Assembly (NCBI GenBank): GCA_000091205.1
Contig: AP006484.2
Direction: 5' to 3' (one strand)
DNA: 64,000 nucleotides
From: Cyanidioschyzon merolae
Taxonomy: Eukaryota
This document shows, one piece after another, positions 28,056 to 63,354 of this stretch. The notes beneath the pieces are model-generated. The model was given only the letters and a program-made list of their open reading frames with translations, ran no database searches and was not told the DNA's origin. How positions within the stretch are numbered: position 1 is the stretch's first letter; the number at the start of each line of letters is the position of its first letter. The position numbers were made by a program, and so were the translations under genes.

Positions 28056-29696
28056 GCAGTCAAAAACCTCGAGCTAGACGGTGCTGCAGGTGGTTGTCTC
28101 GAAGTCTCGGAGCAGCAGGTCACTGCCTGAGGAGCCCTGGCTGTAGGAACGAAACGCTGCCCAAAATGTTACCAACGCGCAGTTTACCTTGAGTCGCTGG
28201 CGCCGAAGCAGGTAACCTCGAAAGTTGTTCGCTTCACCTAAGTTTTCTGTGTTGCTGTTCGAGATTCAAAATCATGGATGACGCAGTGCCGGTGGCGCGA
28301 GGCTCGTCTCCGTTGACCAGGTCTACACGAGTGCTTGCATTGGGCGGCGGCGGCGGAGGCACAGCTTGTTGACCGATGTCCCGACAAGATCGGCTGCTAA
28401 TGAGACACGGTTGCGCCGTTCCATCCACTGGCGGACCATGGGTGCTCGCAAGGCAGCGATCCAGCTGATCAGGACGCTCTCGAGCATCTTGCAACCGCCC
28501 CTGAATGCTGGTTGCATCACATGCTAGAGCAATGTGCCGTGCGGTATATCGCATGCTCTCACCAGAGACGCACGCGTTATGGTGAGCCTTATCTTGACCA
28601 TGCGTCGGCACGCTGCGAAGCGTTTCGTAGAGTAAGCGCTTGTCACTGGACATTGCGCAACCAGCACTTGACTGAGCACGGGTCGGGAACGGGATCTTGC
28701 GCACAAACTTGGGTCAAGCACACAGCGAACATCATGACGACATCAATACCATACAAGGACGCATGTTGCACAGGATCATGTTCATAGGAAAAAATCTGGA
28801 AAGTCGGAACAATCGGGGTTGCGCAAGCTCAGCTGCCTAGCGCACCACGTACACAAGCAGACAGTGAGCGACCTCTTGGTTCCGTGTAGCGCAGCGGAAT
28901 GCTTGTGCTTGGATGCATCCTAACACGGAGGTATGATGCAGGACAGATTTCCTTGTTTCGGCATTCGCGTCTACGTTCGTTGACGCACGACCATACAAAC
29001 GACGTGAATCAATCTGTTCTGCAAGTGCGAACGCGACTGGTAATAGGGGCTCTGACCTCAGCTCGTCTGGGGACGCTCGCACTCGCCGCAGTTTTCAGAG
29101 CCGTGTATTCCTAAACAGTACAGGCTGAATCTATTCACCGACTCGTCGTACACTCAGAAACACCATATATCGGAATGCCATGATCGTTCACCAGTTGCTG
29201 AGGAAGATCGTTCCCAGTGTGTCGATATGGCGCTTGAGCCTTGCCGGATTGCTGAACCGCACCGTACAAGTGTCGTATACGTGGCGAGAATCCATTGCCT
29301 CCTGTTTTGGGCGCTTCGTTTTTTCACCACAAGTCGTTCGCGTTTCAGGCCAATGCACTCACAAAGAATCCAACGATTCGCTGGAAAGTTCGCGTTACAG
29401 AAAAATCTTGAGCACTCCAGATGCTCGACTCATTTCCGGACGTTGCTCAAGGCGTTCAAGTCCTGGTGCACCACGTGCTTGCGTGCCCGGTTGTTGGTGA
29501 AGTCACAGCGCAGCGAACCCGTCACCTGCGACTGCTCGCCATTGGACGTTCGATCCGCTTCTTGTACACCGTTTTTGGTGCACCTGTCCAGGGTTCAAAC
29601 GCTTCATGTTTGCCAGTTTCAACCTGCACCTGCGCGTATGACACCTGCATGTCATCTGGAACGCATCGATAGATATCGTGGAGAATCGAGTTTCGC

Positions 29697-35781: not shown

Positions 35782-37983
35782 ATGGCTGAGCGGCAGCGTT
35801 GGTGTCTCCAGCGACGGCACCTGTGTCTCGTTTTACGTCCAGAAGCCGGACAACGCTTACGCGAATACCTGGAGCACCCAGACGTTGTTCCAGACTGGAA
35901 CGACGTTGAGTTTGTGGCCGAGCACTCGGATACCGACGTTCCGAGAGCAAACGCTCGAGCAAAGGCTCCCAACGGTGCACGAGACAGCGTAGCGGCGGTC
36001 CCAGAAGCACTGAAAGCGTTATCGTTAACAGACGACGTTGAAGGCCCCGTGGATCCGATCACGCTCGGCGTTTTGCGTGCTCCGTATACCACCCCATGTG
36101 GCCATGTGTATTCAGCGCTGGCGATTGTGCGACACCTGCTCGTAACGTTCGAACGAGCCCGCCCAAGGGGCGTCGAAGACAACACTTGTCAGGTTGGAGA
36201 CGCGCTGCAGTTACTCGCACGGTGCCCCGTATGCACCGACTGGTTCTCTTTTGATGATCTTCGTCCCTATGTTTCCTGGCACAGTCCGACACCGCTAACC
36301 CTGCATTCCCGCATCCGAATGCGTCTGTTGTGCCGCCCTCGGGGTTGTGCGTCCCGTATCATGCTACCTCGAGACTGGATCGACACAACAGAGGCCAAAC
36401 TGTTGTGGTCGGTCGGCGCCAGCACCAAGGCTTCGGAGAAACAGCACGCGCCTGCAGCCATAGCGGATCCCGACCGTACTCAGTGGCATACTGACCAAAC
36501 GCAGTCTACGACAATCAAAGCGTTAGCAGATACGTTTTGCCAGCGTATGATGACTACACCGGTAGCGGAGGACGGAGACGAGCAGCTACTTCCCTCGAGG
36601 AAAAACGGGCGCTTCTATCGGGTCTTGCTCGGGGAACCTGATTTTGTAGAGGAGCTCTTCGTCAGCCGGGAAGCGGAGTTGCAACAGCATCTAATGGAAG
36701 ATGAAACGATGGAGCTGGCGCACACGCTGGTGATGCATCGCGAGCGCGCTCGCAGAGCGACCGTGAAGCGAATAACCCAGCAGATAGAGACCGCTTCATG
36801 GTCGAAGCAGGAACCCTTCGAACCTTTCCTGGCAAACGAGATCGCTCCGTCGCAGTCGAAACGCTTACCGGCTGAAGTGGCCGCTCGGGCAACCGTTGAG
36901 GACCCGCTGGACCTTCCACAGCGGCAAGCGATGCCTCCGGCACGCACTGACGCTTGCCCTGCACCCGAGAAAGCGTCGATTGCCGTAGAGTACGTCGGAC
37001 TGTACCAGATTGCAGATGGTCGACAAGTTTACATGCATCCGCAAAACTATCGAGCACTGCTCCAACAGTACGGATCGGTGGAAAAGCTTCCGCTTTGGAT
37101 CCAGGGTAGCCTTCTCAGCTGCTATGAATGTCGCACCGAAGAGAAGAAGGCGCGCGCCTGGAGAGGCCGCAGCGCCCATGCAAGTTTCCCGAGAGATCCA
37201 GAGGCATCCAATTGTCGTCAGTTTCACTTACCCGTACCGCTACCGCCGGGCTGTGTGTACTTTGTATGCAAACTGGCATTCGGAGATACGGAAACACCGC
37301 GATGTCGCCGCTATCGTCAGCGAGGAGGTGGAAACGTTCATCCGTCGCACGCATCAGGCGCTGTGCAGCAGCCGCCAGCATTTGCTAGCCGAGAAACCGG
37401 TTCAGAAAACCCTTTTAGCACTTCAAGCGCGCATCGTTCGGTGCCTATGTCGAGACAGACGAAGGCACACCGCAACCGACCTGTGCCCAAACCACAAAAA
37501 GAGGTATCTCGTGGAGCGGAACATGTTCAAACCCCAAGAGAGCGACAGCGCGGGCAACCGCGTCTACGCAGCTCAGAACCGTCGCTGCGGGAAGTCTTCG
37601 AACAAGAGCGTCAGCATATCATCGAAGCGCACGGTGGTGCGCAATTATTCTTCCGTGATCCAAGTCGGGAAGCACTGGATCACACTCGACCCTTTTCGCG
37701 AGCAGTTTCTCATCAGCATCCACCGCCGGCTAGCGAGCGGCACGAAATTGCAGAGCGCGCTTCTACCTGGCCTGCGCTGAGCTCGACAATGCTGCCTGCA
37801 GTGGAGCAGGCACCACAGTCTACCGGGGAGCAAATCCAAGCATCTAATGTTTCCTACGCCCGCATTGCGCAAGTGCGGGGAGGATACTACCCCACCCTGC
37901 GCGACTTGTATGGTCATGCGGAATATGTGCGACCCGCAGCAACATCTGCATCCGAGAGCAAAGATAACCACAAGCCGAACTAG
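35782..37983 (+). CDS. Protein with a RING/U-box/SP-RING-like N-terminal module (733 aa), otherwise low complexity
   Basis: DPITLGVLRAPYTTPCGHVYSALAIVRHL...ARCPVCTDWFSFDDLRP resembles a degenerate RING/SP-RING. The start may be a downstream Met. Confidence 0.4.
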   Translation: MAERQRWCLQRRHLCLVLRPEAGQRLREYLEHPDVVPDWNDVEFVAEHSDTDVPRANARAKAPNGARDSVAAVPEALKALSLTDDVEGPVDPITLGVLRAPYTTPCGHVYSALAIVRHLLVTFERARPRGVEDNTCQVGDALQLLARCPVCTDWFSFDDLRPYVSWHSPTPLTLHSRIRMRLLCRPRGCASRIMLPRDWIDTTEAKLLWSVGASTKASEKQHAPAAIADPDRTQWHTDQTQSTTIKALADTFCQRMMTTPVAEDGDEQLLPSRKNGRFYRVLLGEPDFVEELFVSREAELQQHLMEDETMELAHTLVMHRERARRATVKRITQQIETASWSKQEPFEPFLANEIAPSQSKRLPAEVAARATVEDPLDLPQRQAMPPARTDACPAPEKASIAVEYVGLYQIADGRQVYMHPQNYRALLQQYGSVEKLPLWIQGSLLSCYECRTEEKKARAWRGRSAHASFPRDPEASNCRQFHLPVPLPPGCVYFVCKLAFGDTETPRCRRYRQRGGGNVHPSHASGAVQQPPAFASRETGSENPFSTSSAHRSVPMSRQTKAHRNRPVPKPQKEVSRGAEHVQTPRERQRGQPRLRSSEPSLREVFEQERQHIIEAHGGAQLFFRDPSREALDHTRPFSRAVSHQHPPPASERHEIAERASTWPALSSTMLPAVEQAPQSTGEQIQASNVSYARIAQVRGGYYPTLRDLYGHAEYVRPAATSASESKDNHKPN

Positions 37984-50129: not shown

Positions 50130-50544
50130 AAAGCGCTAGCGTCTTCGTCAACGATCCTCATACAGCTGTTGAGATAAGGTGTCTCTGCAGCAACAATCAA
50201 TGAAAACGTGTGTCGTTATACTAAGCGATTCCGTTCACGACCAGGTGAATCGATGAGGCCTAGGGCGGCGTTTCTGCGACACGATCAGAAATCCCGCAAC
50301 AGCAACTGCTAAAGTGCGTTCGTATCGTTCGGGGTACTTTCGTGTAAACGCATCTTTTACACGGAAACGTATCGGGATTTTCGTTCCAAGGTACTAAATG
50401 AATGGTCTACAGCATAGATAAAAACCTAAAAATGGAAAGTCGATCAAGCACCGAAGGAAATCTGCAAGGCGATCGCTCCTAAATGCCTGTACCGGTCTAG
50501 TGGATACACCAGCTGCACCCTTGCAAACATCCCGCAGATGCTCG

Positions 50545-52266
50545 CTAGTCCGTGGGGTTGGCGTCTTCGGTAGCGTCGGCTGCTCCTGTGGCGGTGCCGC
50601 TGCCCTCTCGCTTACGAACAGCGCTCAGAATGTCGTCAATACGCAGAAGCATGCACGCAGACTCCACTGCGGTCTTAAGTGCTTGCGCTTTCACAGCGTA
50701 GGCGTCCACAATACCCGCTTCAATCATGTCGATGAGCTCGCCACTTGTACCGTCTACGCCAATGTTCGAGTGGCCGGCTTCTGCGTGCTCTGCGCGAAGC
50801 CGCGTAAGGAGCCGGACCACAGAGGTGCCGCAGTTCTCGGCAAGCGTTCGAGGGATCACCTCAAGTGCCTCAGCTGCCTGTCGATAAGGCCACTGCGCAG
50901 CGCCTTCGACGAGCGCAGAGCGCTGCAGCAGAGCCCGGCTGAGCGCCATCTCGGTGGCACCACCACCGGCAACGACGCGACGGTCACCATAGAGGCTGCG
51001 TAGGACGCACAGTGCATCGTGCAGGTTGCGCTCGAGCTCATTCAGCGTGTCTTTACTGCCGCCCCGCAGCAGAACGGTGCACGCGCCTGGTGCTGTGCAC
51101 TGCTCAATGAAACTGTAGTACTCCTCGCCGAGGCGTCGAACCTCGAAGAGGCCCGCTCCCGTCCCGATATCCTGTTGGCTGGCCTCCTCGATACGCGACA
51201 CGATACGCGCACCGGTTGCTCGCACGAGCCGCTCGTTGTCGGTCTTTCGCACACGTCTGAGGGCGCTAATGCCCGCCCGCATCAGCAGGTAAGCGGCCAA
51301 GTCGCTGATACCCTTCTCGGTGATAACCAAGTCGGGGCGCAGTGCCGCGATGCGCTCGCACTGCTGGCGTACAACGGCCTCCTCGGACTGCAGGAGCGCC
51401 TCCCAGTCGGCCTCGCGTGTCACCTCAACGGTGAGCTGGGACTCGCCCTTGCGGTACTCCAGCGGGCAGTCCAGGAGAAGCAGGCGCGGATTCTCAATGC
51501 GTCGCCGCATCTGCGGATGCACAATGTCCTTGTTGAGGACGACACCGCGGATGACCGCGGAATCATCGAGGTCGCCACCGGGGATCTTCTCGACTCGGAC
51601 CAGGTTCTTGATATCGAGCGGACGCTGGGTGCCGGCTCCTGCGGTGGTAGCAGGCGCGCTGCTTTCTGCAATGAGCTTCACCGCTGCGAGTGACCAGGCG
51701 GCAACGCGCTCACGGTAGACAGCAGCCACCTTGGTGCCGAGGCAGGCACGCAAGACGCGCTGCAGCTGCACCTCATCGTTCCAGTCCACTGCAATTGCAC
51801 ACCGCTGCTCCAGCTCTGAGAGCGCATCCTGGAGCGCCCGCATGTACGCTCCAACGATGACACTAGGATGGACGCCCGCCTCTAGGCACGGCTCCGCGGC
51901 CTGGAGAAGCGCCCCCGCCAGCACAATGACGCTGGTCGTTCCGTCACCGACTTCCTCGTCCTGAGTGCGCGACAGCTCCAGCATCGCCTTGGCCGCCGGG
52001 TGCCCCACATCGATCTCTCGCAGGATCGCGTTCCCGTCTGAAGTGATGACCACACCTCCGATAGCGTCGAGGATGAGCTTGAGCATCGCTCGCGGCCCCA
52101 GCGTCGTCCGCACCACGTCCGCTACCGCTTTAGCCGCTGCAATGTTCGCAAGCTGGGTGTCGCGACCCCGCTTGTGCTGCGACTTGGTGTTCACAACATA
52201 CACTGGTGTTGCGTTTTTCAGCATGAGAAGTGTCGCAATCCTTGCAGCCTCCGCTTCGAAGGGCAC
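50545..52266 (-). CDS. CCT3: T-complex protein 1 subunit gamma (CCT3), 573 aa
   Basis: NIAAAKAVADVVRTTLGPRAMLK...GNAILREIDVGHPAAKAMLELSRTQDEEVGDGTTSVIVLAG...ITEKGISDLAAYLLMRAGISALRRVRKTDNERLVRATGARIV...VVAGGGATEM...LEVIPRTLAENCG. Full-length match to the CCT gamma pattern. Confidence 0.9.
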   Translation of the reverse strand: MPFEAEAARIATLLMLKNATPVYVVNTKSQHKRGRDTQLANIAAAKAVADVVRTTLGPRAMLKLILDAIGGVVITSDGNAILREIDVGHPAAKAMLELSRTQDEEVGDGTTSVIVLAGALLQAAEPCLEAGVHPSVIVGAYMRALQDALSELEQRCAIAVDWNDEVQLQRVLRACLGTKVAAVYRERVAAWSLAAVKLIAESSAPATTAGAGTQRPLDIKNLVRVEKIPGGDLDDSAVIRGVVLNKDIVHPQMRRRIENPRLLLLDCPLEYRKGESQLTVEVTREADWEALLQSEEAVVRQQCERIAALRPDLVITEKGISDLAAYLLMRAGISALRRVRKTDNERLVRATGARIVSRIEEASQQDIGTGAGLFEVRRLGEEYYSFIEQCTAPGACTVLLRGGSKDTLNELERNLHDALCVLRSLYGDRRVVAGGGATEMALSRALLQRSALVEGAAQWPYRQAAEALEVIPRTLAENCGTSVVRLLTRLRAEHAEAGHSNIGVDGTSGELIDMIEAGIVDAYAVKAQALKTAVESACMLLRIDDILSAVRKREGSGTATGAADATEDANPTD

Positions 52267-54062
52267 AGCGTTGCCAGCACGTCTCCTCAGAGAGGCGCAC
52301 TGTGGATTCCATCGATCGATACGGAGCTTTCCGGGGCGATCCGTCTACGGGGCAGCGCCTCGACGAGCTACGAACTAGGGAGGCAATGCCCGCTACTATT
52401 TGTGTCGTTTGCAGCTTGCTATCTATCTCGTGAGGAGACCGGGTTTGGGGTTAGCCGAACGTAGAGGTATCTGGAGAGCAACGGTGGTCTTTTGCCTGGT
52501 TATAAGCAGGAATTGTGCGCACAGGGGGGTTCTGGTTAGAATTATCCGTTTTATAGGGTTTAAAAACGCTTGCTGCGGGAGACCTAGCCGTAGCAGAAGC
52601 TGCGTCGGTAGCGTAGACGACTGTAGCAGCGGCTGCTGCAGTCTTGCATGGGGTAAGGCTGGTAATACAGACGACGACAACGGCTGTGACAGTCGCAAGC
52701 ACGTGTCGAGCAGAGCCTAGCGAAAGTGAGCGCCTCGGCTTGTACAGACGTCCACCAGGGACGCGACAGTCGTCTAGTGAGTCGAATCTTCGATCAAACC
52801 GACTGAGTTTGAGGGCAGGCCTACGTATCTGTGAGAAGGAAGCAGGGCCGCTCGGCGCCTTATATACTGTGCGAATCCAGCGCGGCCTTTGTTTTCAAAC
52901 AAAGGTACCCCTGAGTGGTACCCAGTTGTGTGTGCGCTGAAACGCCCTCGACAGCAGCGTCCACCACGAGAACGTCGGGGGTGTGCAGTTTGCGAAGGAG
53001 TGCAGGCCTGTCTGCGACGAACTGAGGTCGTTTCCGGGCAGCTACAGGCCGGTCTTGCTGCCAAGCGTTGGCTGCATCAACTCGGAGGACTCCGCCTCAG
53101 TATTGGACGCTGGGCGCAGAATAACCATAAGGTGGAGTTTTCGGACGAGTGTCGCAGTGGCAACGGAGGCTCCAGCGCCTCTCAGAACAAATCGAGGTCG
53201 CGACAGGCCCACAGCGTCCTCGTTGCTCGTCTACGTCGCACGAGACCCGACCAATTGAGTAGTTCTGGTTCCACGGAGGGAATTACACTGCGGAGCTGCT
53301 GGCCACGCGACCCCGCATCACATCTCCTGAACACTGACGGCAGGGCGCTGGCTCTTGTCGTTTGTTTGGCTCCAGAGTTCCGCAGCAAGTATAGAGCTCG
53401 CACTAGGAAATAAGCGGGTACTGCGCTGGTACCCTGACATCTTGGACTGTACAGAAGAGCGCAGTGTGGAGCTGCGTTTCCGACTTGCGTACTGGACCGA
53501 CGCAACGCCCCCGAGTGTGTGCCTGCGATCCCATGCACAGGGTGTTATCCTTGTGTTCGTTTGTTTCTGCCGCGCTAGACGTGACTTGTTTGCATATCGA
53601 CCCATAACTGAGCCCACTACGCGGAACGCCGCCAGACGCAAAATTATCTGCGCCAAGACTGCATTTTCCCCACGTCTTCGCAGCCGCTTGCAGGAACGAG
53701 CACGTCAACCGTCGCGAACGAAGCATCTTTACCTGGACGCATCGCGGACGGAGTGCGCTGGACTGCACGCGCTCACAGCCTCTAGACTGCAAACCTGACG
53801 GATCAGAGGCGCTGCGCCACTCCAGCGCTTCCGAGGCGGCAGGGGTCAGCTCCCGGTGAATACAGGCCAGTAGCTACGATTAAGGTACCCACGCATCTAC
53901 ATAGCAAGCGAGGAAGGGAGACTTCCGAGCAGTTAAGAATTGAGATTAGGCAAGCGTAGATTTCGTGAAACCCCATCACTGCACCAAGGCGGGCATCCAG
54001 ACGATCAGACAGGTACGCATTGACACCAGACACGTGTAGGCAGGGCGCTGCGGGCGCACCCA

Positions 54063-56267
54063 ATGATGGCGGAGCGTTCACCAATCATCGACGCCATCGA
54101 GGATGCGCAGCGGCCGCTTGTGACCTCCGATTCCGAGATGCGTGCTCGTGACGTGTCAGCGCACGCATGCAGACAGCACGGACACGTGCTGCGGCATACG
54201 ATGCAACGTGTCCCTGCTCGTGTTGAGCTTCCCGAAATGCCGATAGGTGCGAACGACGCATTTACAGCTGCTGAAATATATATAACACCATCATCCATAT
54301 CCGAAAGCGTACCAAGTTCGTGCACATCCTGCGCGACAGCGTCAGCGTGCGACGCAGAGACGCGAAGGCTCGCCGCTATCGCGAAAAGAGGGCGCGCTAC
54401 AAGCCCCTGCGGTGAGCGCTCTTCACAGATGCTCCCGGCGGGTAGAATGCCAGCGAGTAGTGCGGCACCAGCAGCGCCCGAGACGCTCGACTCGATGCCA
54501 TCGTATCCACCCGATCCCGGTCCCGATCCACGGAGCGCTGCGAATAGCATTGGTGCTTCCACCAATGTCGCATCTCACAGCGAGCACAGCGCTTGCGGGT
54601 GCTTGGCTACAGATCAGGACACGAAACCTGAAAACCAGCGCACCACCAGTACGCGGTTCTGCATATGTCGCCAGCCGTACGACGCGCGCCGCAACGGCAT
54701 CATGGTAGCGTGCGACAACCCGACCTGCGCGTACGGCTGGTTCCACATCTCTTGTCTATTTCTGGACGTTTCACGTGTGCGGGCATCTAAGACCTTTATT
54801 TGTCGGTTCTGCTCCGGGACAGGGACGGACCTATTCACTCCAGTGCAGCGACCGAAACGCCCGCGGAGCCAGCATGGACGTCCGGCCGTCACCGATTACG
54901 CCCGCCTCCATGAGGGCGATATAGGCGGTGCCCTGCGGGGCGGCACCTGCGCCGGCGCTCTGAGCGAGGCGGCACGAGCGGCCGCTGAACGCCGGGCTCA
55001 GAGCTGGGCGAAGAACGCCACCAGCGACGCTGGCGGGCTAGCGGCGCATCTGGGGATACTCGTCTACGGCACCGGTGGCGAATTGCAGCGCATGCCCGAT
55101 GCGCCCTGTGTCGTGCTCGATCCCGACGGGCTCGACATGCACATTCCACATCGTGCTTACCATCCCGAGGAGGTCGGGCGCGAGTACGGACTTGAGCGTC
55201 ATTGCGAAGTGCTGGATGTCGCGAGCCAGAGTGAGCTGCATCCCCGCTGGAGCCTGGGGCAGTACCTGGATTACCTGGCAACCGCGCCAGCGTTACGTCA
55301 GCGGGTGCTGAACCTCATCTCCTTGGAGATATCACGAACACCGACAGGGCGAGCGTTCGTGGTGCCGGCGCTGATTCGCCGAGCGGACTGGGCGTCGCTG
55401 TATCCGGAGCCGCGCCCGCATGTTGATAAGTACTACCTTCTGAGCGGCACTGGATCGTGGACCTCGTGGCATATAGACTTTGGCGGATCGACGGTGTTCT
55501 ATCACGTGCTGCGCGGGAAGAAGCGCTTCTACATGTCACCGCCTACAGAGCGCCATCTGCAGCTCTACGAGCGGTGGCAGCGGGATCCGCAACAGGCGCT
55601 GCGTGAGCTAGACTTTGTTGAGGAGCTGAGCCCTATTGCCGTCATTGACCTCGACGCGGGAAACACGTTGTTCATTCCGGCGGGATGGCTGCATGCTGTG
55701 TACACCCCAGCGGACAGCGTTGTGCTGGGAGGCAACATTCTCCACCTGGGCGGCGTTGTCATGCAGCACCGCGTGTTCCAGATGGAGAACCGTCTACGCG
55801 TCTTACCCAAGTACCAGTTCCCGCTGTTTCGAGAGCTTCACTGGCTAGCGCTCCGACAGTATGCCCTTGCACTGCGAGAGGCGCGCACTCCCGGAGCGGT
55901 TTTCCAGACGAGTGCTGTGCACAGCGAACGCCAGCACCTGCGCTGGCTAGTGAAGCACTTGCGAGATCAGTTACATAACGCCTTGACCAGCGCGCCCGCT
56001 GAGTCTCCGAACCCAACCGAACTGCATACGCTGTTGCGGGACCGCATCGGGCTCCCCAGGAGGGTCCAGCTCGCGGACGTGCAGCGCTGGCTGGGCGTTT
56101 TGGAGGAGGCACTGGATACGGCCCACGAGCACGCACCCGAGTCGACAAAGGCCGAACGGAAGCGGACAAGGCGGTTTGAGAAACAACTCCGCCCGAGTCC
56201 CAGCGCTGACGCACTGGACGCGGCGCCCTGTCGCTCGACTCGGATTCGTTCAGAAAAGCGCGTCTGA
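54063..56267 (+). CDS. PHD-finger plus JmjC-domain histone lysine demethylase (JHDM1/KDM7-like), 734 aa
   Basis: PHD: CICRQPYDARRNGIMVACDNPTCAYGWFHISCL...CRFCSG. JmjC: YYLLSGTGSWTSWHIDFGGSTVFYHVLRGKKRFYMSPPT...NTLFIPAGWLHAVYTPADSVVLGGNILH, with Fe(II)-ligand H..D...H spacing. Confidence 0.85.
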   Translation: MMAERSPIIDAIEDAQRPLVTSDSEMRARDVSAHACRQHGHVLRHTMQRVPARVELPEMPIGANDAFTAAEIYITPSSISESVPSSCTSCATASACDAETRRLAAIAKRGRATSPCGERSSQMLPAGRMPASSAAPAAPETLDSMPSYPPDPGPDPRSAANSIGASTNVASHSEHSACGCLATDQDTKPENQRTTSTRFCICRQPYDARRNGIMVACDNPTCAYGWFHISCLFLDVSRVRASKTFICRFCSGTGTDLFTPVQRPKRPRSQHGRPAVTDYARLHEGDIGGALRGGTCAGALSEAARAAAERRAQSWAKNATSDAGGLAAHLGILVYGTGGELQRMPDAPCVVLDPDGLDMHIPHRAYHPEEVGREYGLERHCEVLDVASQSELHPRWSLGQYLDYLATAPALRQRVLNLISLEISRTPTGRAFVVPALIRRADWASLYPEPRPHVDKYYLLSGTGSWTSWHIDFGGSTVFYHVLRGKKRFYMSPPTERHLQLYERWQRDPQQALRELDFVEELSPIAVIDLDAGNTLFIPAGWLHAVYTPADSVVLGGNILHLGGVVMQHRVFQMENRLRVLPKYQFPLFRELHWLALRQYALALREARTPGAVFQTSAVHSERQHLRWLVKHLRDQLHNALTSAPAESPNPTELHTLLRDRIGLPRRVQLADVQRWLGVLEEALDTAHEHAPESTKAERKRTRRFEKQLRPSPSADALDAAPCRSTRIRSEKRV

Positions 56268-56535
56268 GCATGTATGAACGTTGCATATACGTGAAAGAGA
56301 CAAATTGTTGGACGGGTGTGCCTGTGACCGCGAGGCAGGCCTTTGCGAGCAAAAAGCGAATAAAGGATAGCGTCGAATAGGCTGCGGAAGCAACGCGGCC
56401 GTATCGCGAACATGCTTCACGGTATCGCAGTCATGGAATGCACAGCATACAATCTACGCAGCGGCGTACCACGGATCAAAGATCGAATTCTCACTCAACT
56501 TGTCCCACGCATGCGGTTCTTATTCACCAATGCCA

Positions 56536-57994
56536 AAAAATGGAACTTGTGAAGGTCACCATTAGCCAAGTACAACCGTTCCCACTTTCTATAGACGAAA
56601 TTCCAGCCTCACTGGATACCTGATCGCAGCATACCAGTCCCGTGATTCGGACGGGAATCCAATGCCTTCTCTCCCGGCAATTGACTTTCGCATCGCATGT
56701 CGCTAGCCTTCCAGCGCACTGCCTGCACACACGGAGTACTGAACGGCTCTTTTCGATACTCGCTCAACACAGCGACGCTGGACGCTCCGCAGGCACAAGA
56801 CGTTTCCCGATGCTGATCGAGGCGCTCGAGTCCGCTGCATCGCGTGCTTGCGTGCTTTGTTCTTGCCGGTGGATTCACAGCCAGGCAAGCCGCTCGCCTT
56901 CGATCGTCTCGCCATGTGATGATCAACCAGCGTACCGAGCGCCAGCTCGTGTATCTGGCTCTGTTTCTGCACGCTTCCTCTTCACGTGTAGTTGCGAGCC
57001 CCAGTGCCTGTGATGCGTGTACGCCGTCCAGAACGCTTCGCTGGGAATCACACAGAATCGCTTCCTGTTCTCGATAAAGTGCCCAGGGCGTCGAGACCGA
57101 TCCCGAAGGCGTCCTTCCACCTGTCGCGATGCCTGCTGGCGTCCACCAAGCCCGACGCCAGACGAGACCGAGTAATGGCGACGCTGAGCCGCCCCATCAT
57201 GTCTCCGCTCAGGTCTCTGGCTTCGTCCTGTCCCACTGCTTGGCCGCTCTTGTGTTCGGGGCATCGACGCTGTCGATGAGCAGTGCAGAAGCGTATGAGA
57301 TGAAGAAGCCGCATCGTTTGCCCGACGGAGGATGGTGTTTCATACAATTCTATCGACTTGGCGATTTGTAGGCGACCGCACGCGTGACCTGTCGCGGGGT
57401 CCGCTGTTGTCGCTGGTCATGTTCGATTCTTCTTCACGAGCCGCAGTCTTGGCAGGCATCGGGTACCCTTGTACAGTTCTGCAATGCAGTCCGAACGAGG
57501 TCTCATCGCGTGAGACAAGGGCTCGTCGCTCCTGCTACAAGCTGTTGCGTTTCAGTACGAAGTGAGTCATGTTTTGTTCGGCGCGCGACACGCTCGCCCA
57601 GAAGCACGTTTTTCCGTTGGCCACTCACATCCCTTTATCACAGCTCGTATAAACGGTACGGAAACACGAGACCCTTTGGAGGCTTTGGTAGCATTTGGCA
57701 GCGTATGTGTGGAGTAGAATGGACTGAGGGGACCGACGTCGTGCAAGCAGAGTCTGATACTTTCTTTTTCGGATACATGACGTTCTGAACGAGGACTAGG
57801 AAGAGAATAGCCTATGCACCTGCCGACAGCAGAGTGAGTGACTTGACGAGACCGCGGTCCGTTTTTCGCGAGCGATCAGTAAAAGTATCGAGTCTTTTTG
57901 CAACCTTTCTCCTTGTTACAAGACGTATTCGTTTTATTGAAAGCTTTCGATGAAAATCGAACGAAAACAAGAGCGGTTTGCCGGTACTAGTGTT
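56536..57994. repeat. Inverted repeat, left arm (1459 bp). About 99% identical to the reverse complement of 60314-61772.
   Basis: Mirror-image ORF pairs with identical translations lie at coordinates summing to 118308 (57384..57788 with 60520..60924; 56609..56926 with the 3' end of 61133..61699). Boundaries were read directly at 56536/61772 (outer) and 57994/60314 (inner). Confidence 0.95.
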
Positions 57995-60313
57995 ACCTAA
58001 ATACTGTTCTGGATAAGACAATAGCGCCACAGTGGATCCACGGGGAGACTCATCAATCGTGAACCATGGTAAGCAAAAGGCGTCCACAATGTTTGTGCCA
58101 GAGATGTTCTTCCATGGCCAGCGCATTTATCGACATTGCAGCGAACGCCTCGAAGAGGCTCGACATGCAGCTTTTCCCTGAATGCAGCGATCCTTCAATC
58201 CTGATGGGAAGCATGGTTCACGCTCATCAGTTGGAAAGGCCTCCCTAGCGACGCGATCGTCGTTGTCCCAACCACTGGCGGTAGCCGCGCACGCCATGCG
58301 GTGGAACGCACAGAGACTCAATGGATTGATGCCATGAAAAATAACTACAGCAAACCCACTAAGGCGTTCAGTCGAGATACTATAAGTTTTGTATTGAGAA
58401 GATCAAACGTGTACATAACCATGAATGTAAAACCGAATAATGTTGTGTACTGTCTTGGATCCGAGCGAGACCAATCGATTCGCGGAAACGCCGCCAAACA
58501 GAATAAGAGCGTCAGCCAAGCCCAGCTCCGTGCTCGAGTCAGGAGCGCGAGCGCTCCGAAAAACGTCGCCAACAGGCTATAGACTGCAGGCGGCGGCGCT
58601 ACAGTGTGTTCGCGTCGAAATATAACTAGTTCGCTTGGTCTTCTGGGGTCGTCTCTACTCGGCATTCTGTGAAAACAAAAAGTTGCTTTGCTGAGGCACT
58701 GGGAGGAATGCACGCTCAGAGACGCTCACACGCAGAACGGGCCTCAGTGGAAATCGTCTTGTTTCGTGCACGGTGTACAAAAGCCTACCAGCGTCTCCCT
58801 GAAGCGCAAAAGCTGCCGGCTCTGAGGGTATAAAACGTCACGGTTTCCGCGGACGCGTCCCCGTTGCACTGCCTGCAGAGCGACATCCGACCGCACTCCT
58901 GCGGATACGAATGCGCGCGCGCTAGCGCCTGTCCACCGCGTGCTCTGGATGGGAAACGGTGTTCAGTGAGCGAGCGATCGCTGACGTCCGTAGATCGTTT
59001 TTCCTCATAGGTGCGGGATCAATGCATTTAGACCGATTCCCTGCGGATTTTCAATTGATGGGGGCCAGCACGGAAGGTACCTTCTTTCTTGTGCAGGCAC
59101 TCCGAGATTCCATGGACCCGGACCTCTCTTCCAGTCGCTGAAGGGGTTTCGCGTGATCCAGCGACTCAGCGGGTGAAGAGCCTTCATGAAGCGCTTGATG
59201 CAACTCCAAGTGTGCCATGACGGCTACTCTTGCCGTAAGCAAACAAAAATATTTTATGGTGATCATGCAGTGTCGGTTAGAGGCGTCGCAGCTTCTGCAC
59301 AAGTGCAGCATTGCCGAAAAAGCGCTGCTCCCGGAAGAAACCTTTATCACTGCGCTAGTGAATTCATTATTCGGACGAGCGCAGGTGACCTACAGATGAC
59401 CACGTAATACACATCTGAGACTTTATATCGGCATCGGGTTAGAAGAAACCGTTGTATTTCGTTGCATCAGGTATTGGGGCACCTCCAGAGTGCAATGCAC
59501 TGCTTCATGCGGGTGCGATTACGGAGGACGGCGCTCCTCTACACAATAAGCCCGCATTTGCTTATCAGAGAAAGTGCTGGATGATGCCCAGGACTGGCAA
59601 AGCTATGCCATCAAATACGGAACGAGGGTTTATGCTACATTTCTAACTTTCCCATTTGGGCAAGCCTGCATGCAGACCGATAGTGCAAGCGCCCGAAATT
59701 TCTGCGTTGATAGCCGGTACTTGCTTTCGATCCCATTCTATGCATAGAAGCCCTGAACCGCACTCTTTGGGTTTGGCATTCGCTAGAGTGGAGTTCTTGA
59801 TGAGATTCTATCAATAGACCTGCTCCAGCGGTAGTGGACTGGACGAATATACAGAATAGAATGAATCGTGGCACCCTAATAGCGAAGCATGACAGGGTAT
59901 TTTTTCCTCCGTTTTGCTTCGAATCAGCAAAGAAGCATATTCCCAGCTGTCTGAGGTATATTTCAGAGACGGTATTCTGCCGTGCTCACGTGGACACATC
60001 TTCTACAATGGAGAACGCACAGTGATCACCGATTCGGACCTGTCGATAGCTGTTTCACTGGACCACAACAGATCAAATGGCAATTCACAAATATGCTTTG
60101 GCATCAAAATAATTATCAGTGCATGCTTTCCGCCCGAATGGACGGCCTCGCATCAGAACTTCGGCCGGAAGATGGTGCTTGATGTTGTTCGCATTAATGG
60201 GAGCATTGCTGGCCCTAGTATGCATTCGCAAAAGGAACCTTGCCTGGTAGCTGTACTTAAGTCACGCATGCGACGGTCAGTTTGCAGCTGGGACTCAGAA
60301 AAGTGATTGCAGG

Positions 60314-61772
60314 AACACTAGTACCGGCAAACCGCTCTTGTTTTCGTTCGATTTTCATCGAAAGCTTTCAATAAAACGAATACGTCTTGTAACAAGGAGA
60401 AAGGTTGCAAAAAGACTCGATACTTTTACTGATCGCTCGCGAAAAACGGACCGCGGTCTCGTCAAGTCACTCACTCTGCTGTCGGCAGGTGCATAGGCTA
60501 TTCTCTTCCTAGTCCTCGTTCAGAACGTCATGTATCCGAAAAAGAAAGTATCCGACTCTGCTTGCACGACGTCGGTCCCCTCAGTCCATTCTACTCCACA
60601 CATACGCTGCCAAATGCTACCAAAGCCTCCAAAGGGTCTCGTGTTTCCGTACCGTTTATACGAGCTGTGATAAAGGGATGTGAGTGGCCAACGGAAAAAC
60701 GTGCTTCTGGGCGAGCGTGTCGCGCGCCGAACAAAACATGACTCACTTCGTACTGAAACGCAACAGCTTGTAGCAGGAGCGACGAGCCCTTGTCTCACGC
60801 GATGAGACCTCGTTCGGACTGCATTGCAGAACTGTACAAGGGTACCCGATGCCTGCCAAGACTGCGGCTCGTGAAGAAGAATCGAACATGACCAGCGACA
60901 ACAGCGGACCCCGCGACAGGTCACGCGTGCGGTCGCCTACAAATCGCCAAGTCGATAGAATTGTATGAAACACCATCCTCCGTCGGGCAAACGATGCGGC
61001 TTCTTCATCTCATACGCTTCTGCACTGCTCATCGACAGCGTCGATGCCCCGAACACAAGAGCGGCCAAGCAACGGGACAGGACGAAGCCAGAGACCTGAG
61101 CGGAGACCTGATGGGGCGGCTCGGCGTCGCCATTGCTCGGTCTCGTCTGGCGTCGGGCTTGGTGGACGCCAGCAGGCATCACGACAGGTGGAAGGACGCC
61201 TTCGGGATCGGTCTCGACGCCCTGGGCACTTTATCGAGAACAGGAACCGATTCTGTGTGATTCCCAGCGAAGCGTTCTGGACGGCGTACACGCATCACAC
61301 GCACTGGGGCTCGCAACTACACGTGAAGAGGAAGCGTGCAGAAACAGAGCCAGATACACGAGCTGGCGCTCGGTACGCTGGTTGATCATCACATGGCGAG
61401 ACGATCGAAGGCGAGCGGCTTGCCTTGCTGTGAATCCACCGGCAAGAACAAAGCACGCAAGCACGCGATGCAGCGGACTCGAGCGCCTCGATCAGCATCG
61501 GGAAACGTCTTGTGCCTGCGGAGCGTCCAGCGTCGCTGTGTTGAGCGAGTATCGAAAAGAGCCGTTCAGTACTCCGTGTGTGCAGGCAGTGCGCTGGAAG
61601 GCTAGCGACATGCGATGCGAAAGTCAATTGCCAGGAGAGAAGGCATTGGATTCCCGTCCGAATCACGGGACTGGTATGCTGCGATCAGGTATCCAGTGAG
61701 GCTGGAATTTCGTCTATAGAAAGTGGGAACGGTTGTACTTGGCTAATGGTGACCTTCACAAGTTCCATTTTT
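60314..61772. repeat. Inverted repeat, right arm (1459 bp)
   Basis: Reverse complement of 56536-57994 with about 10-15 substitutions. Most cluster in the segment corresponding to 57000-57260. Confidence 0.95.
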
Positions 61773-63354
61773 CGGGACTCGTGAGATTATCCGCCAAAAG
61801 GGACTGCTGCCGCCGATGCGATGCGCTCTCGAGCCATGCACGTCAGCGAAGCGCGCGTTCCCTAGGCCCCACATTGCATCCGGGGTTTCTTTCTCTAAAC
61901 GCTTTGTCAAGGACATAAACCTCTCCGTTTATCTGTCTGGGCTCGACATACGAAGGAGATTTCGTCACCATTTGAAGCAAGAGACTGAAGCGCTATCGAG
62001 GTCGCCTCGGCGCATGCACTTCCAGGGCGCTCCGGCAGGGTCGGGGTCTCCGACCCGCTCAATGGTTTCACTGCCCAGGGTGTTTTCTTCTAGTAGAGAC
62101 CACGCTCAAGGTGTATTGTTTTGGATCTTTATTTTACTGATTGCCACTTTGGAGCGCTTGCGGTGCCTCGGTCGAGATCTTCGCCGACGCTGGCGAACCG
62201 CGCCGCTCAAGCACACGCAACTGCAATCGTTTCCGTCGCACGTCGCACTCCTCGGTAACGAAGCAGCGCTTGCGTCGATCACGAAACACCTAATAGGACG
62301 CGGTGTTCAGAGAGTTACTGTGTTTGATCCGGGCAAAAGGGAGCAGCGAGGGCGCCTTGGCAGGGCAAGCACTCCAGCGAGGCTTGTTCTGGGCCCTGCA
62401 GACGCCACACGTCGCCGTATTGTGGCCATGACGGTAGACCAGCGCGAGCGCATCAGCGATAACAGAGCCTTCTACGATGAACCAGACTTGCTACTCACCT
62501 TGGATGGGCATCTTCACGGGTATCCGGCCACGGCGCTGCGCGTTACGCACCTCCACCGGCTTGCGAATCCGAGTTTATGGGCGGTAGATGAGGCGCTTCG
62601 TCTCTACTTGACAACTGAACGTCGCCAAGGTCGATGAGAGGGCACCTGACTCGATCGCCAGCGCATCGTGCTGCCCGCAAGGTACCTGGCTATGCACTGC
62701 AAAGTATGAAACAACGTTTACTCAGCTTGGGGCTTCAGTGTCGTGTCACGAAGATTTTCACGATGAGCTTGCACGGATCACGAAAAAAGGGCGAACAATG
62801 CGCAATCACTGCGCCGAATTCTGGAATCCCTCGACCATGAACAAGGGCGACCTCCAGGCCCACCTATCAATGCAAAAGCTACAGGTCACCTGTCGTGCTC
62901 TGAATTCATATACAAGCGAGAAGCATTCTACGTGCGAGGGCATCAGCGCCCTAAGTATTCTTTAGCTATTGCTTGAATACAGAGGTCGCCGGGGAGCGCG
63001 CTAGCGAGGTCGCTGGACATCGCCATGCGGTGCAAGCCTCCTTCTACAATACGAATTCGATGCAGCTTCGCACACTCTGATGGAAGTGCACATGCTGCCG
63101 GAGATCGCACCTTCAACCTTACCTCTTCTGCGAACGCAACCATGTTTTATAAATCCGGGAGAAGCGTCCCTGAAAACAACGGAGGCTTGATCAATGCATC
63201 GACGCAGCGAACGTCGCACGGAGACAGGACGGTATGACGCCAAGGCCTCCAAAGACGTGAGCTACGGGGAACGCACGACGCTGTTCGGGACAGCGCTCGT
63301 TGTGCTGGTCTGTGCTCCGACATGCTGCGCACACAGAATACCCATCCCGCATTC

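Follow-up and report, generated by a model that had tools for sequence, protein, structure and literature searches.

A palindromic locus enclosing an Asterix gene on chromosome 2 of Cyanidioschyzon merolae: a probable inverted breakpoint duplication left by a small inversion

Palindrome, spacer gene and neighbours

The window analysed, a stretch of 64,000 nucleotides from chromosome 2 of Cyanidioschyzon merolae 10D, whose encoded proteins, wherever compared, proved identical to ones from that chromosome, contains a palindrome composed of a left arm (56536-57994), a unique spacer of 2319 bp (57995-60313) and a right arm (60314-61772). Inverted-repeat search and arm alignment give each arm a length of 1459 bp. 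Aligned to the reverse complement of the left arm, the right arm shows 99.25% identity without any indels, the 11 substitutions comprising 6 transitions and 5 transversions. Eight of these differences are located inside 57008-57236, and the remaining three at 56675, 56882 and 57755. The preliminary description of this DNA, which had reported 1459-bp arms free of indels with some 10-15 substitutions concentrated at 57000-57260, is in this respect confirmed. A 12-bp outward extension of the repeat (56524-56535) carries 4 mismatches and is considered noise; no comparable inverted match was present in a shuffled-sequence control. As had also been described, the palindrome follows closely on a JmjC gene (JmjC-A, 54063-56267, plus strand), beginning 268 bp downstream of it. 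JmjC-A and Asterix are convergent, with their 3′ ends on either side of the left arm; Asterix and CMB047C are divergent, and their 5′ sides border the right arm. CMB047C (62014-62637, plus strand; exact match to BAM78867) encodes a conserved hypothetical protein with orthologues in contigs L002, L005 and L008, and its annotated start lies 241 bp beyond the end of the right arm.

The spacer holds, on the minus strand, a gene for Asterix, the PAT-complex subunit of the WDR83OS family (58345-58665; 106 amino acids plus stop). Its product matches Pfam PF03669 with an E-value of 2.3e-8 and 34.3 bits against a curated cut-off of 22.7, the alignment covering profile positions 2-86 of 96, and its only PDB match is human Asterix (7tm3_5, E 0.19), likewise of 106 amino acids. 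Orthologues in two other cyanidialean lineages, 70-74% identical at the amino-acid level, bear the same precomputed Pfam domain. With a dN/dS of about 0.07 (0.06-0.09) between C. merolae and the outgroups, the gene is under purifying selection. The earlier statements that the locus lacks credible coding content and that none of its ORFs resembles a protein family are therefore wrong for the spacer, while the claim that every ORF has a mirror-image partner holds within the arms and fails within the spacer. Asterix is missing from the 10D reference annotation, in which BAM78866 and BAM78867 are consecutive, and no NCBI member was found in its protein cluster; the Asterix call is a useful correction to that annotation.

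Palindromes can be created by chimeric reads, and arms as nearly identical as these could reflect a false fold-back or a duplicated arm in the reference. Such an artefact is, however, extremely unlikely. The two arms are told apart by their 11 sites, the unique spacer holds a conserved gene, both outer junctions run into conserved syntenic genes, and the 10D genome is a finished Sanger assembly (PMC1955436). Moreover, the spacer is bounded by arm sequence on both sides in three independent metagenome assemblies, from several samples (L006, L030 and L031); L001 independently links the left flank, the left arm and the spacer; the junction from right arm to right flank is present in L007 and L031; and the flank-arm junctions were each recovered independently (L001, L007, L011).

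A further inverted segmental duplication of 5877 bp, separate from the palindrome and beyond what the preliminary description could see, stops 172 bp short of the left arm. Its copy A, a CCT3+JmjC block (50487-56363), includes CCT3-A (50545-52224, minus strand) and JmjC-A, and copy B lies in inverted orientation about 100 kb, or about 30 genes, away on chromosome 2 (BAM78865/66 versus BAM78896/97). Comparison with contigs L009 and L010, which carry copy B, set the extent of the homology; the proteins of the two copies differ at 4 of 559 and 9 of 734 amino acids. According to the orthology of the flanks, the ancestral neighbours on the JmjC side have stayed with copy A and those on the CCT3 side with copy B. 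The pair shares the topology of the palindrome, with about 100 kb enclosed between its copies, and is a precedent on the same chromosome.

Content of the arms

The arms are non-coding and non-transposon, and show no sign of an RNA family. Database searches with their ORFs of at least 85 amino acids gave no matches, the longest of them, used in an exhaustive HMMER search, returned only the same locus, and an Rfam search gave zero matches even at E ≤ 1; codon usage in the arms, a weak test, is not gene-like. Two near-identical copies of 1.46 kb with sharp ends, absent from the gap between Asterix and CMB047C in the outgroups (see below), might nonetheless reflect a composite or foldback-like transposon: a mobile element would have inserted twice in opposite orientation, and recombination between the two insertions, a classical path to inversion, would afterwards have reversed the gene they enclosed. 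This origin is very improbable. Target-site duplications were looked for in five configurations, direct and exchanged ones among them, and none of at least 2 bp was found exactly at the edges, nor any of at least 4 bp with offsets of up to 3 bp. No terminal inverted repeat was found inside an arm, and among the 37 ORFs of at least 60 amino acids from the spacer and the right arm Asterix was the one credible Pfam domain, with neither a transposase nor a reverse transcriptase found. Only two arm copies exist in the 64-kb window, and a metagenome-wide 24-mer scan returned this locus alone, though 39-kb contigs of the same genome were recovered; one weak 115-bp match was noted in addition. Mobile elements are reported to be few in 10D, with 26 of the non-LTR type and 8 of class II (PMC1955436), and MITEs to be absent (PMC3964958). 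The rejection of a classical TIR transposon in the preliminary description, argued from the lack of a target-site duplication at the outer edges and of a transposase in the spacer, was correct.

The same description had regarded the palindrome as a candidate hairpin-RNA or small-RNA locus. Plants and animals have inverted-repeat loci of this type, for instance IR71 and IR2039 of Arabidopsis. The likeness resides in a long, near-perfect inverted repeat capable of forming dsRNA if transcribed through: the arms, 99.25% complementary over 1459 bp, would pair on one transcript, for which read-through is conceivable at the left arm between the convergent JmjC-A and Asterix, and the resulting dsRNA of about 1.4 kb would be diced into siRNAs. 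However, Dicer and Argonaute are reported missing in C. merolae and all other Cyanidiophyceae, with a loss in the ancestor of the group, and RNAi is reported to be inoperative there (PMC11376382, PMC9812998), which makes a small-RNA function very unlikely. The locus also departs from IR71 and IR2039 in its spacer, 2.3 kb with a conserved protein-coding gene under purifying selection rather than a loop. A 5.2-kb spanning transcript is not known, Rfam offers no family, and the rearrangement described below fully accounts for the structure.

A core flanked by inverted repeats is likewise the arrangement of centromeres in fission yeast and in some Candida and Komagataella, and a 2.3-kb core of 51% GC between inverted repeats of 1.46 kb looks similar; the centromeres of C. 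merolae measure 2-3 kb with about 48% GC (bioRxiv 10.1101/096016). That the palindrome is a centromere is hardly credible all the same. The CENH3 ChIP peak of chromosome 2 is located at 212.6-213.5 kb (PMC3744952), whereas the palindrome lies at roughly 125-140 kb, an estimate made through the locus tags CMB038C and CMB047C and not an exact coordinate. Furthermore, the core holds a conserved gene under selection, the published C. merolae centromeres show 'no other apparent pattern', and further intergenic stretches in the window are just as AT-rich.

Gene order in the outgroups and origin of the palindrome

Synteny was compared with outgroup contigs from Cyanidiococcus (L008, L005) and from a third lineage (L002-L004). 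Asterix, CMB047C and P0 are co-oriented in both outgroups, and JmjC shares that strand in L008, the sole outgroup locus extending to JmjC, so that the outgroup order reads JmjC(+), Asterix(+), CMB047C(+), P0(+). In 10D, Asterix is on the minus strand between JmjC(+) and CMB047C(+)/P0(+). The segment between the arms is inverted relative to the outgroup order, the arms are placed exactly at both of its ends in inverted orientation, and the right flank is collinear with the outgroups over at least 10 kb. CMB047C would ancestrally have been placed directly downstream of Asterix.

The spacing of these genes bears on which arm is the older. In 10D, the interval between Asterix and CMB047C amounts to 350 + 1459 + 241 bp, compared with about 250-320 bp in the outgroups; once the arm is subtracted, the two are comparable. 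Since the outgroup interval leaves no room for an arm beside CMB047C, the right arm is probably the derived copy. On the other side, the outgroup gap between JmjC and Asterix is about 1.4 kb, which gives room for an ancestor of the arm, and the ancestral sequence runs on from JmjC into the left-arm region. The outgroup gaps fit, as a matter of spacing, one ancestral copy on the JmjC side; the left arm is probably this original, that is, ancestral JmjC-Asterix intergenic DNA. Synonymous differences from the outgroups have reached saturation (pS about 0.75), so that any homology between the arm and the intergenic DNA of the outgroups would be undetectable and spacing is what the assignment draws on.

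We propose, and consider probable, that the palindrome is a structural scar rather than a device, left by a small inversion that carries an inverted duplication at its breakpoints. This inversion, in the lineage of C. merolae, would have reversed about 3.8 kb beside JmjC, made up of 1.46 kb of JmjC-Asterix intergenic DNA and the Asterix gene region, and the 1.46 kb from one breakpoint would have been duplicated in inverted orientation so as to stand at both ends, converting X-D-S-Y into X-D-S(rc)-D(rc)-Y. The change could have occurred in a single event through staggered breaks and fill-in, following the model of Ranz et al., or in two steps, with an inverted duplication first and recombination between the copies afterwards; both routes would yield the identical product, and the break-and-repair mechanism is inferred. 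In Drosophila, inverted duplications of unique sequence accompany 17 of 29 inversions, their sizes ranging between 46 bp and about 1.9 kb and their source being often a single breakpoint (Ranz et al. 2007, PLoS Biol; PMC1885836). As in that set, formerly unique breakpoint sequence is found inverted at both ends of the inverted segment, the duplicate of 1.46 kb fits the size range, duplication from a single breakpoint, as here, is the commoner case there, and transposon features are absent from both (PMC1885836). The two cases differ in scale, the Drosophila inversions being mappable on polytene chromosomes whereas the segment here spans about 3.8 kb including one arm, and in the fate of the copies, which are on average about 88% identical and decaying in Drosophila whereas the C. 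merolae arms are 99.25% identical and seemingly concerted (PMC1885836). Unlike the Drosophila set, the present case comes from a red alga and has a second nested case, the 5.9-kb duplicate, at a distance of 172 bp. The feature is overall of an ordinary kind, well documented here. The arm might conceivably also act in the regulation of CMB047C or Asterix.

Exchange between the arms and orientation of the spacer

The divergence of the arms is not uniform. The outer half of the left arm (56536-57236, mirrored at 61072-61772) contains 10 of the 11 differences in 701 bp, and the inner half (57237-57994, mirrored at 60314-61071) a single one in 758 bp (binomial p = 0.004), a skew that stands out also against the between-strain distribution (Fisher p = 0.011). 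Across the inner half, most wild arm copies differ from 10D at 9-13 sites, and those of L006 at 4-5; in most wild copies, divergence between strains is not reduced in this half. The inner half has recently been homogenised between the 10D arms by conversion. Following the proposed inversion, the non-coding arms would trade sequence by gene conversion, which in 10D would have nearly wiped out the differences in the 758 bp closest to the spacer. At three sites, both 10D arms share a base that no wild arm copy has, and the comparison with wild strains shows the arms evolving in concert, with the caveat that metagenome contigs are liable to collapse arms. At 57127, 57173, 57185 and 57235, the arms joined to the right flank in L025, L026, L030 and L031 carry the alleles of the right arm; as arm-specific alleles are common to several strains, the duplication predates the strains. 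Beside the spacer, the wild haplotypes are mosaics with two alleles per site. Short-read environmental contigs may collapse or mix arms and strains, which weakens both the concerted-evolution and the mosaic arguments. These results support the suggestion in the preliminary description that a recent inverted duplication has been kept uniform by gene conversion, and refine it to a breakpoint duplication with direct signs of arm-to-arm conversion.

Palindromes of the human Y chromosome have a scale of 9 kb to 1.45 Mb, against 1.5 kb here. In P1-P8, the identity of the arms is upheld by gene conversion; as in C. merolae, inverted arms more than 99% identical surround a unique spacer, and both are potential substrates for inversion of that spacer (PMC8600007). 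In C. merolae, unlike P1-P8, the arms are non-coding and a single gene is situated in the spacer rather than in the arms, so that conversion here has no obvious gene-maintenance benefit.

Long, near-identical and inverted, the arms would serve as a substrate for homologous recombination, reversing the spacer back and forth. An invertible segment that is polymorphic today, in which recombination between the arms repeatedly reverses Asterix and possibly alters the expression of Asterix or CMB047C, is compatible with the inversion origin, to which it adds present-day behaviour. Among contigs crossing the whole arm, 10D-type linkage occurs in L001 and L031, as in the reference, and the flipped type in L006, L025, L026 and L030; L025 and L026, from separate data sets, agree on both the flipped linkage and the arm haplotype, and the mosaic arm haplotypes point to inter-arm exchange. 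Yet a collapsed inverted repeat in an assembly graph connects to both spacer ends, and mixed linkages are expected by chance because short reads are unable to phase a 1.46-kb repeat. The 5.9-kb repeat shows equal ambiguity (L016 versus L009/L015), and the complementary junction of left flank, arm and right spacer end is never seen among the contigs. We regard ongoing flipping as a tentative possibility, on balance doubtful.

Inversion by large inverted repeats is familiar from the isomers of the plastid IR, the yeast 2-micron plasmid and herpesvirus segments. In these systems, as here, inverted repeats flank a unique segment, and homologous recombination gives two orientation isomers, as it might here; they are, however, multicopy or extrachromosomal, with isomers coexisting in each cell and some using a dedicated recombinase, whereas the C. 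merolae locus is single-copy, nuclear and without a recombinase. Another parallel is the human FLNA-EMD region at Xq28, where 11.3-kb inverted repeats reportedly give a common inversion polymorphism (Small et al. 1997). Single-copy genes are there likewise enclosed by highly similar inverted repeats, and recombination reverses the segment leaving the genes intact; that polymorphism has been demonstrated, whereas ambiguous short-read contigs are what suggests one in C. merolae.

A published description of such a nuclear flip-flop in C. merolae was not found in a literature search. It is a doubtful proposition that in wild C. merolae recombination acts on the 1.46-kb arms and likewise on the 5.9-kb CCT3+JmjC pair. 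If true, wild populations would carry both orientations of the Asterix segment, and possibly also of the pericentric segment of about 100 kb, with arm haplotypes continually reshuffled by gene conversion. Nuclear DNA would then flip-flop in a eukaryotic genome that ranks among the simplest, and the expression of the flanking genes might change.

Structure and content of the palindrome

The repeat search of the window returned a single inverted pair between 54 and 64 kb. Base-by-base comparison places the left arm at 56536-57994 and the right arm at 60314-61772, each of 1459 bp, with a spacer of 2319 bp between them; their alignment is free of indels and shows 11 substitutions (99.25% identity), and the 12 extra outer bases added by the repeat search carry 4 mismatches and do not belong to the true arms. 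This comparison, together with an arm 24-mer found at exactly two places in the window and absent from shuffled sequence, bears out the geometry given in the preliminary description, as well as the clustering of differences noted there, since 8 of the 11 fall in 57008-57236. Both strands of the window carry large intronless ORFs, and its GC content is about 56%. Besides CCT3, eleven ORFs match exactly a series of consecutive strain 10D proteins of the 457,013-bp chromosome 2, CMB038C (35782-37983) and CMB047C among them; locus-tag spacing puts the palindrome at an estimated 125-140 kb, roughly, of that chromosome. Arm sequence lies on both sides of the spacer in three environmental contigs (L006, L030 and L031), and thus the palindrome exists in wild populations and did not arise as an error of the reference assembly.

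The arms gave no sign of coding content. Their ORFs matched nothing in Pfam better than chance, those of at least 85 aa had no match in a database of 5.8 billion proteins that includes the 10D annotation, and an exhaustive HMMER search with the longest recovered only this locus, from wild C. merolae, and one low-complexity match. No arm ORF appeared coding-like by codon-usage log-likelihood, a measure of low power under which the spacer gene described below scores only 0.02, and an Rfam search at the palindrome returned no match even at E ≤ 1. Target-site duplications were absent in direct, exchanged and whole-element configurations, no terminal repeats were found at the arms, and the arm 24-mer revealed no further copies elsewhere in the window; scanned across metagenomes, it retrieved two contigs only, both from this locus. 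A transposon is rejected for want of target-site duplications, terminal repeats, Pfam domains, database homologues and additional copies in the window and the metagenome scan; very few transposons have been reported in 10D (PMC1955436). Arm stretch 56803-56915 shows a weak but significant similarity to the intergenic sequence 29433-29542, 27 kb away (74% over 115 bp, E 1e-9), which could be the remnant of an old duplication or a shared motif.

The spacer, by contrast with the arms, contains a gene, and the earlier view that the locus lacks credible coding content holds for the arms and fails for the spacer. The product of the minus-strand ORF at 58345-58665, 106 aa long, scores above the curated cut-off of Pfam PF03669 (Asterix, a PAT-complex subunit; E 2.3e-8), and its sole PDB match is human Asterix, likewise of 106 aa. 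Orthologues in two further cyanidialean lineages are 70-74% identical, with dN/dS of 0.06-0.09 and synonymous sites saturated. The gene is missing from the 10D annotation, in which the flanking JmjC-A (BAM78866) and CMB047C (BAM78867) have consecutive accessions; its protein cluster has no NCBI sequence among its members, and in the Cyanidiococcus assembly it lies at 5103-5423 of contig L008, minus strand, and is not among the called genes. The record of a model genome is hereby corrected: both C. merolae 10D and Cyanidiococcus have a conserved gene of ER membrane-protein biogenesis that their gene sets lack.

Inversion of the spacer relative to the outgroups

Gene order was compared with Cyanidiococcus yangmingshanensis (L008, from GCA_026122185.1), a Logan contig (L005) and a third lineage (L002-L004). 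In L008 the order is CCT3(-), JmjC(+), about 1.4 kb, Asterix(+), 319 bp, the CMB047C orthologue(+), P0(+) and GDSL; in L005 and L002-L004 some 250-320 bp separate Asterix(+) from the CMB047C orthologue downstream, with P0 next in L002-L004. Strain 10D has the same neighbours and a right flank collinear over at least 10 kb, with Asterix inverted relative to the outgroups and one arm at either end of the inverted piece. Once the right arm is subtracted, the distance from Asterix to CMB047C in 10D amounts to 350 + 241 bp, which is similar to the outgroup spacing. Between Asterix and CMB047C the outgroups leave too little room for a 1.46-kb arm, while between JmjC and Asterix they leave enough. 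The arms have no blastn or tblastx similarity to the outgroups, a result to which no weight is given because neutral sites are saturated (pS ~0.75), so that the spacing argument alone counts. The three 31-kb contigs L002, L003 and L004, from three metagenomes, all end at one place about 1.5 kb upstream of Asterix, a hint that the third lineage, too, may carry a repeat or rearrangement at that point.

The gene to the right of the palindrome, CMB047C (62014-62637, plus strand), matches the 10D protein BAM78867 exactly. Besides the annotated start at 62014 (207 aa), the longest ORF, chosen by metagenome gene callers, starts at 61816 (273 aa), and the outgroups favour 62062 (191 aa). Its C-terminal ~50 residues are near-invariant in the three lineages (DEPDLLLTLDGHLHGYPATALRVTHL...TTERRQGR). 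A C-terminal RxG motif suggested a likeness to Nus1/NgBR that is unsupported by Pfam, PDB sequence or profile searches, with no match in Pfam or PDB; a single-sequence structure model was unusable (pLDDT 44).

We propose that the palindrome arose with the inversion. Staggered breaks around a segment D-S, inverted with fill-in of D, would convert it into X-D-S(rc)-D(rc)-Y, and the observed arrangement is exactly that predicted by this model; the same product would result if the sequence was first duplicated in inverted orientation and the copies then recombined. Inverted duplications of unique sequence accompany 17 of 29 Drosophila inversions, with duplicates of up to about 1.9 kb that often derive from one breakpoint only (Ranz et al., PMC1885836), and the C. 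merolae locus resembles them in being an inversion with inverted duplicates of putative breakpoint sequence at its ends. The palindrome is real and unremarkable in type, probably the scar of a rearrangement, with gene conversion keeping its non-coding arms alike, and it represents no new kind of genetic element. The proposal that it is a hairpin-RNA or small-RNA locus is not upheld and appears most improbable: C. merolae is reported to possess no machinery for RNA interference, neither Argonaute nor Dicer (PMC11376382), and DCL1 and AGO1 are reported lost in the ancestor of Cyanidiophyceae (PMC9812998); the supposed loop holds Asterix, a gene under selection; and the rearrangement is a sufficient explanation.

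Among contigs with a full arm, the 10D linkage is found in L001 and L031 and the opposite one in L006, L025, L026 and L030, a picture that resembles inversion polymorphism. Short reads cannot phase 1.46 kb, and a collapsed inverted repeat joins both spacer ends in the assembly graph; since this ambiguity predicts both linkages, their mixture is no proof of an inversion polymorphism. Linkages across the neighbouring 5.9-kb repeat are equally mixed (L016 versus L009 and L015). Active flipping of the spacer in nature is considered unlikely.

Evidence for sequence exchange between the arms

Of the 11 differences between the 10D arms, ten fall in the outer 701 bp, leaving one for the inner 758 bp (binomial p=0.004). 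In wild arm copies, taken from short-read metagenome assemblies that may collapse arms or mix strains, the inner half differs from 10D at 9-13 sites in most copies (4-5 in L006) and the outer half at 9-11, so the low inner divergence between the 10D arms is not due to constraint; the 10D inner and outer differences depart from the between-strain distribution (Fisher p=0.011). Across 13 wild arm copies, right-arm alleles of 10D at 57127, 57173, 57185 and 57235 reappear in wild arms linked to the right flank, and left-arm alleles in L001 and L027; arms thus carry specific alleles common to 10D and wild strains, and the duplication predates strain divergence. At three sites (56856, 57099 and 57620) the two 10D arms agree on one base and all wild copies on another, which requires transfer between the arms. 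In L031 the arms differ at 6 sites within the inner 281 bp, and therefore the inner-half identity of 10D reflects a recent, strain-specific homogenisation. Wild haplotypes adjoining the spacer, no more than one read length from unique sequence, are mosaics of two alleles per site, with all four allele combinations seen between sites 28-39 bp apart.

The adjacent CCT3+JmjC inverted duplication

Copy A, the CCT3-A and JmjC-A block left of the palindrome, was delimited at 50487-56363 (5877 bp) by homology with contigs of its inverted counterpart, copy B. The order on chromosome 2 of 10D is CCT3-A, JmjC-A ... JmjC-B, CCT3-B (BAM78865/66; BAM78896/97); CCT3 of the window is 100% identical to BAM78865, and the copies differ at 4 of 559 residues in CCT3 and 9 of 734 in JmjC. 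Homology of the environmental copy-B contigs L009, L010 and L015 to the window is limited to this block and ends 172 bp short of the left arm, which rules out that the arm is part of the duplication. In Cyanidiococcus, the CCT3-side neighbours (448-aa, 178-aa and WD40) are orthologous to genes of the copy-B flank, and the JmjC-side neighbours to genes of the copy-A flank. This flank orthology indicates an inversion spanning about 30 genes (~100 kb), with the block inversely duplicated at both ends; no description of it was found in the literature searched.

The CENH3-defined centromere of chromosome 2 is at 212.6-213.5 kb (PMC3744952), probably inside the ~100-kb segment, and the inversion is probably pericentric. 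The palindrome itself might be taken for an inverted-repeat centromere, as the orthologous locus is mid-contig in Cyanidiococcus and the chromosome 2 centromere likewise central; locus tags put it about 80 kb from the CENH3 peak, and this reading is therefore rejected.

In a 72.7-kb contig (L016, Ga0078972_1001924), positions 1-21680 link ANTH-JmjC-CCT3-ABC1, joining the copy-B flank to the copy-A flank across the 5.9-kb repeat, opposite to L009 and L015; either the contig was mis-joined at the repeat, or a wild strain has the ~100-kb segment in the other orientation. Downstream of JmjC-B, several wild contigs (L018, 5090-5677; also L019, L020, L021 and L010) have three 49-aa ORFs at even spacing, which suggests that the copy-B breakpoint carries a short tandem repeat. 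The final 65 bp of L011 (6477-6541), about 270 bp past the block boundary, repeat CCT3 sequence (50561-50625) exactly and in inverted orientation, probably because the assembler folded back where the repeat ends.

Two adjacent rearrangements of chromosome 2, of 3.8 kb and about 100 kb (the latter probably pericentric), share one signature, an inversion with inverted duplicates of putative breakpoint sequence on either side, and it matches a pattern worked out in Drosophila, here in a genome described as nearly free of repeats and transposons and famed for its simplicity. As a natural example of non-coding inverted repeats evolving in concert, the palindrome is compact and clean, and, C. merolae being genetically tractable with efficient homologous recombination, rates of conversion and inversion would be directly measurable.
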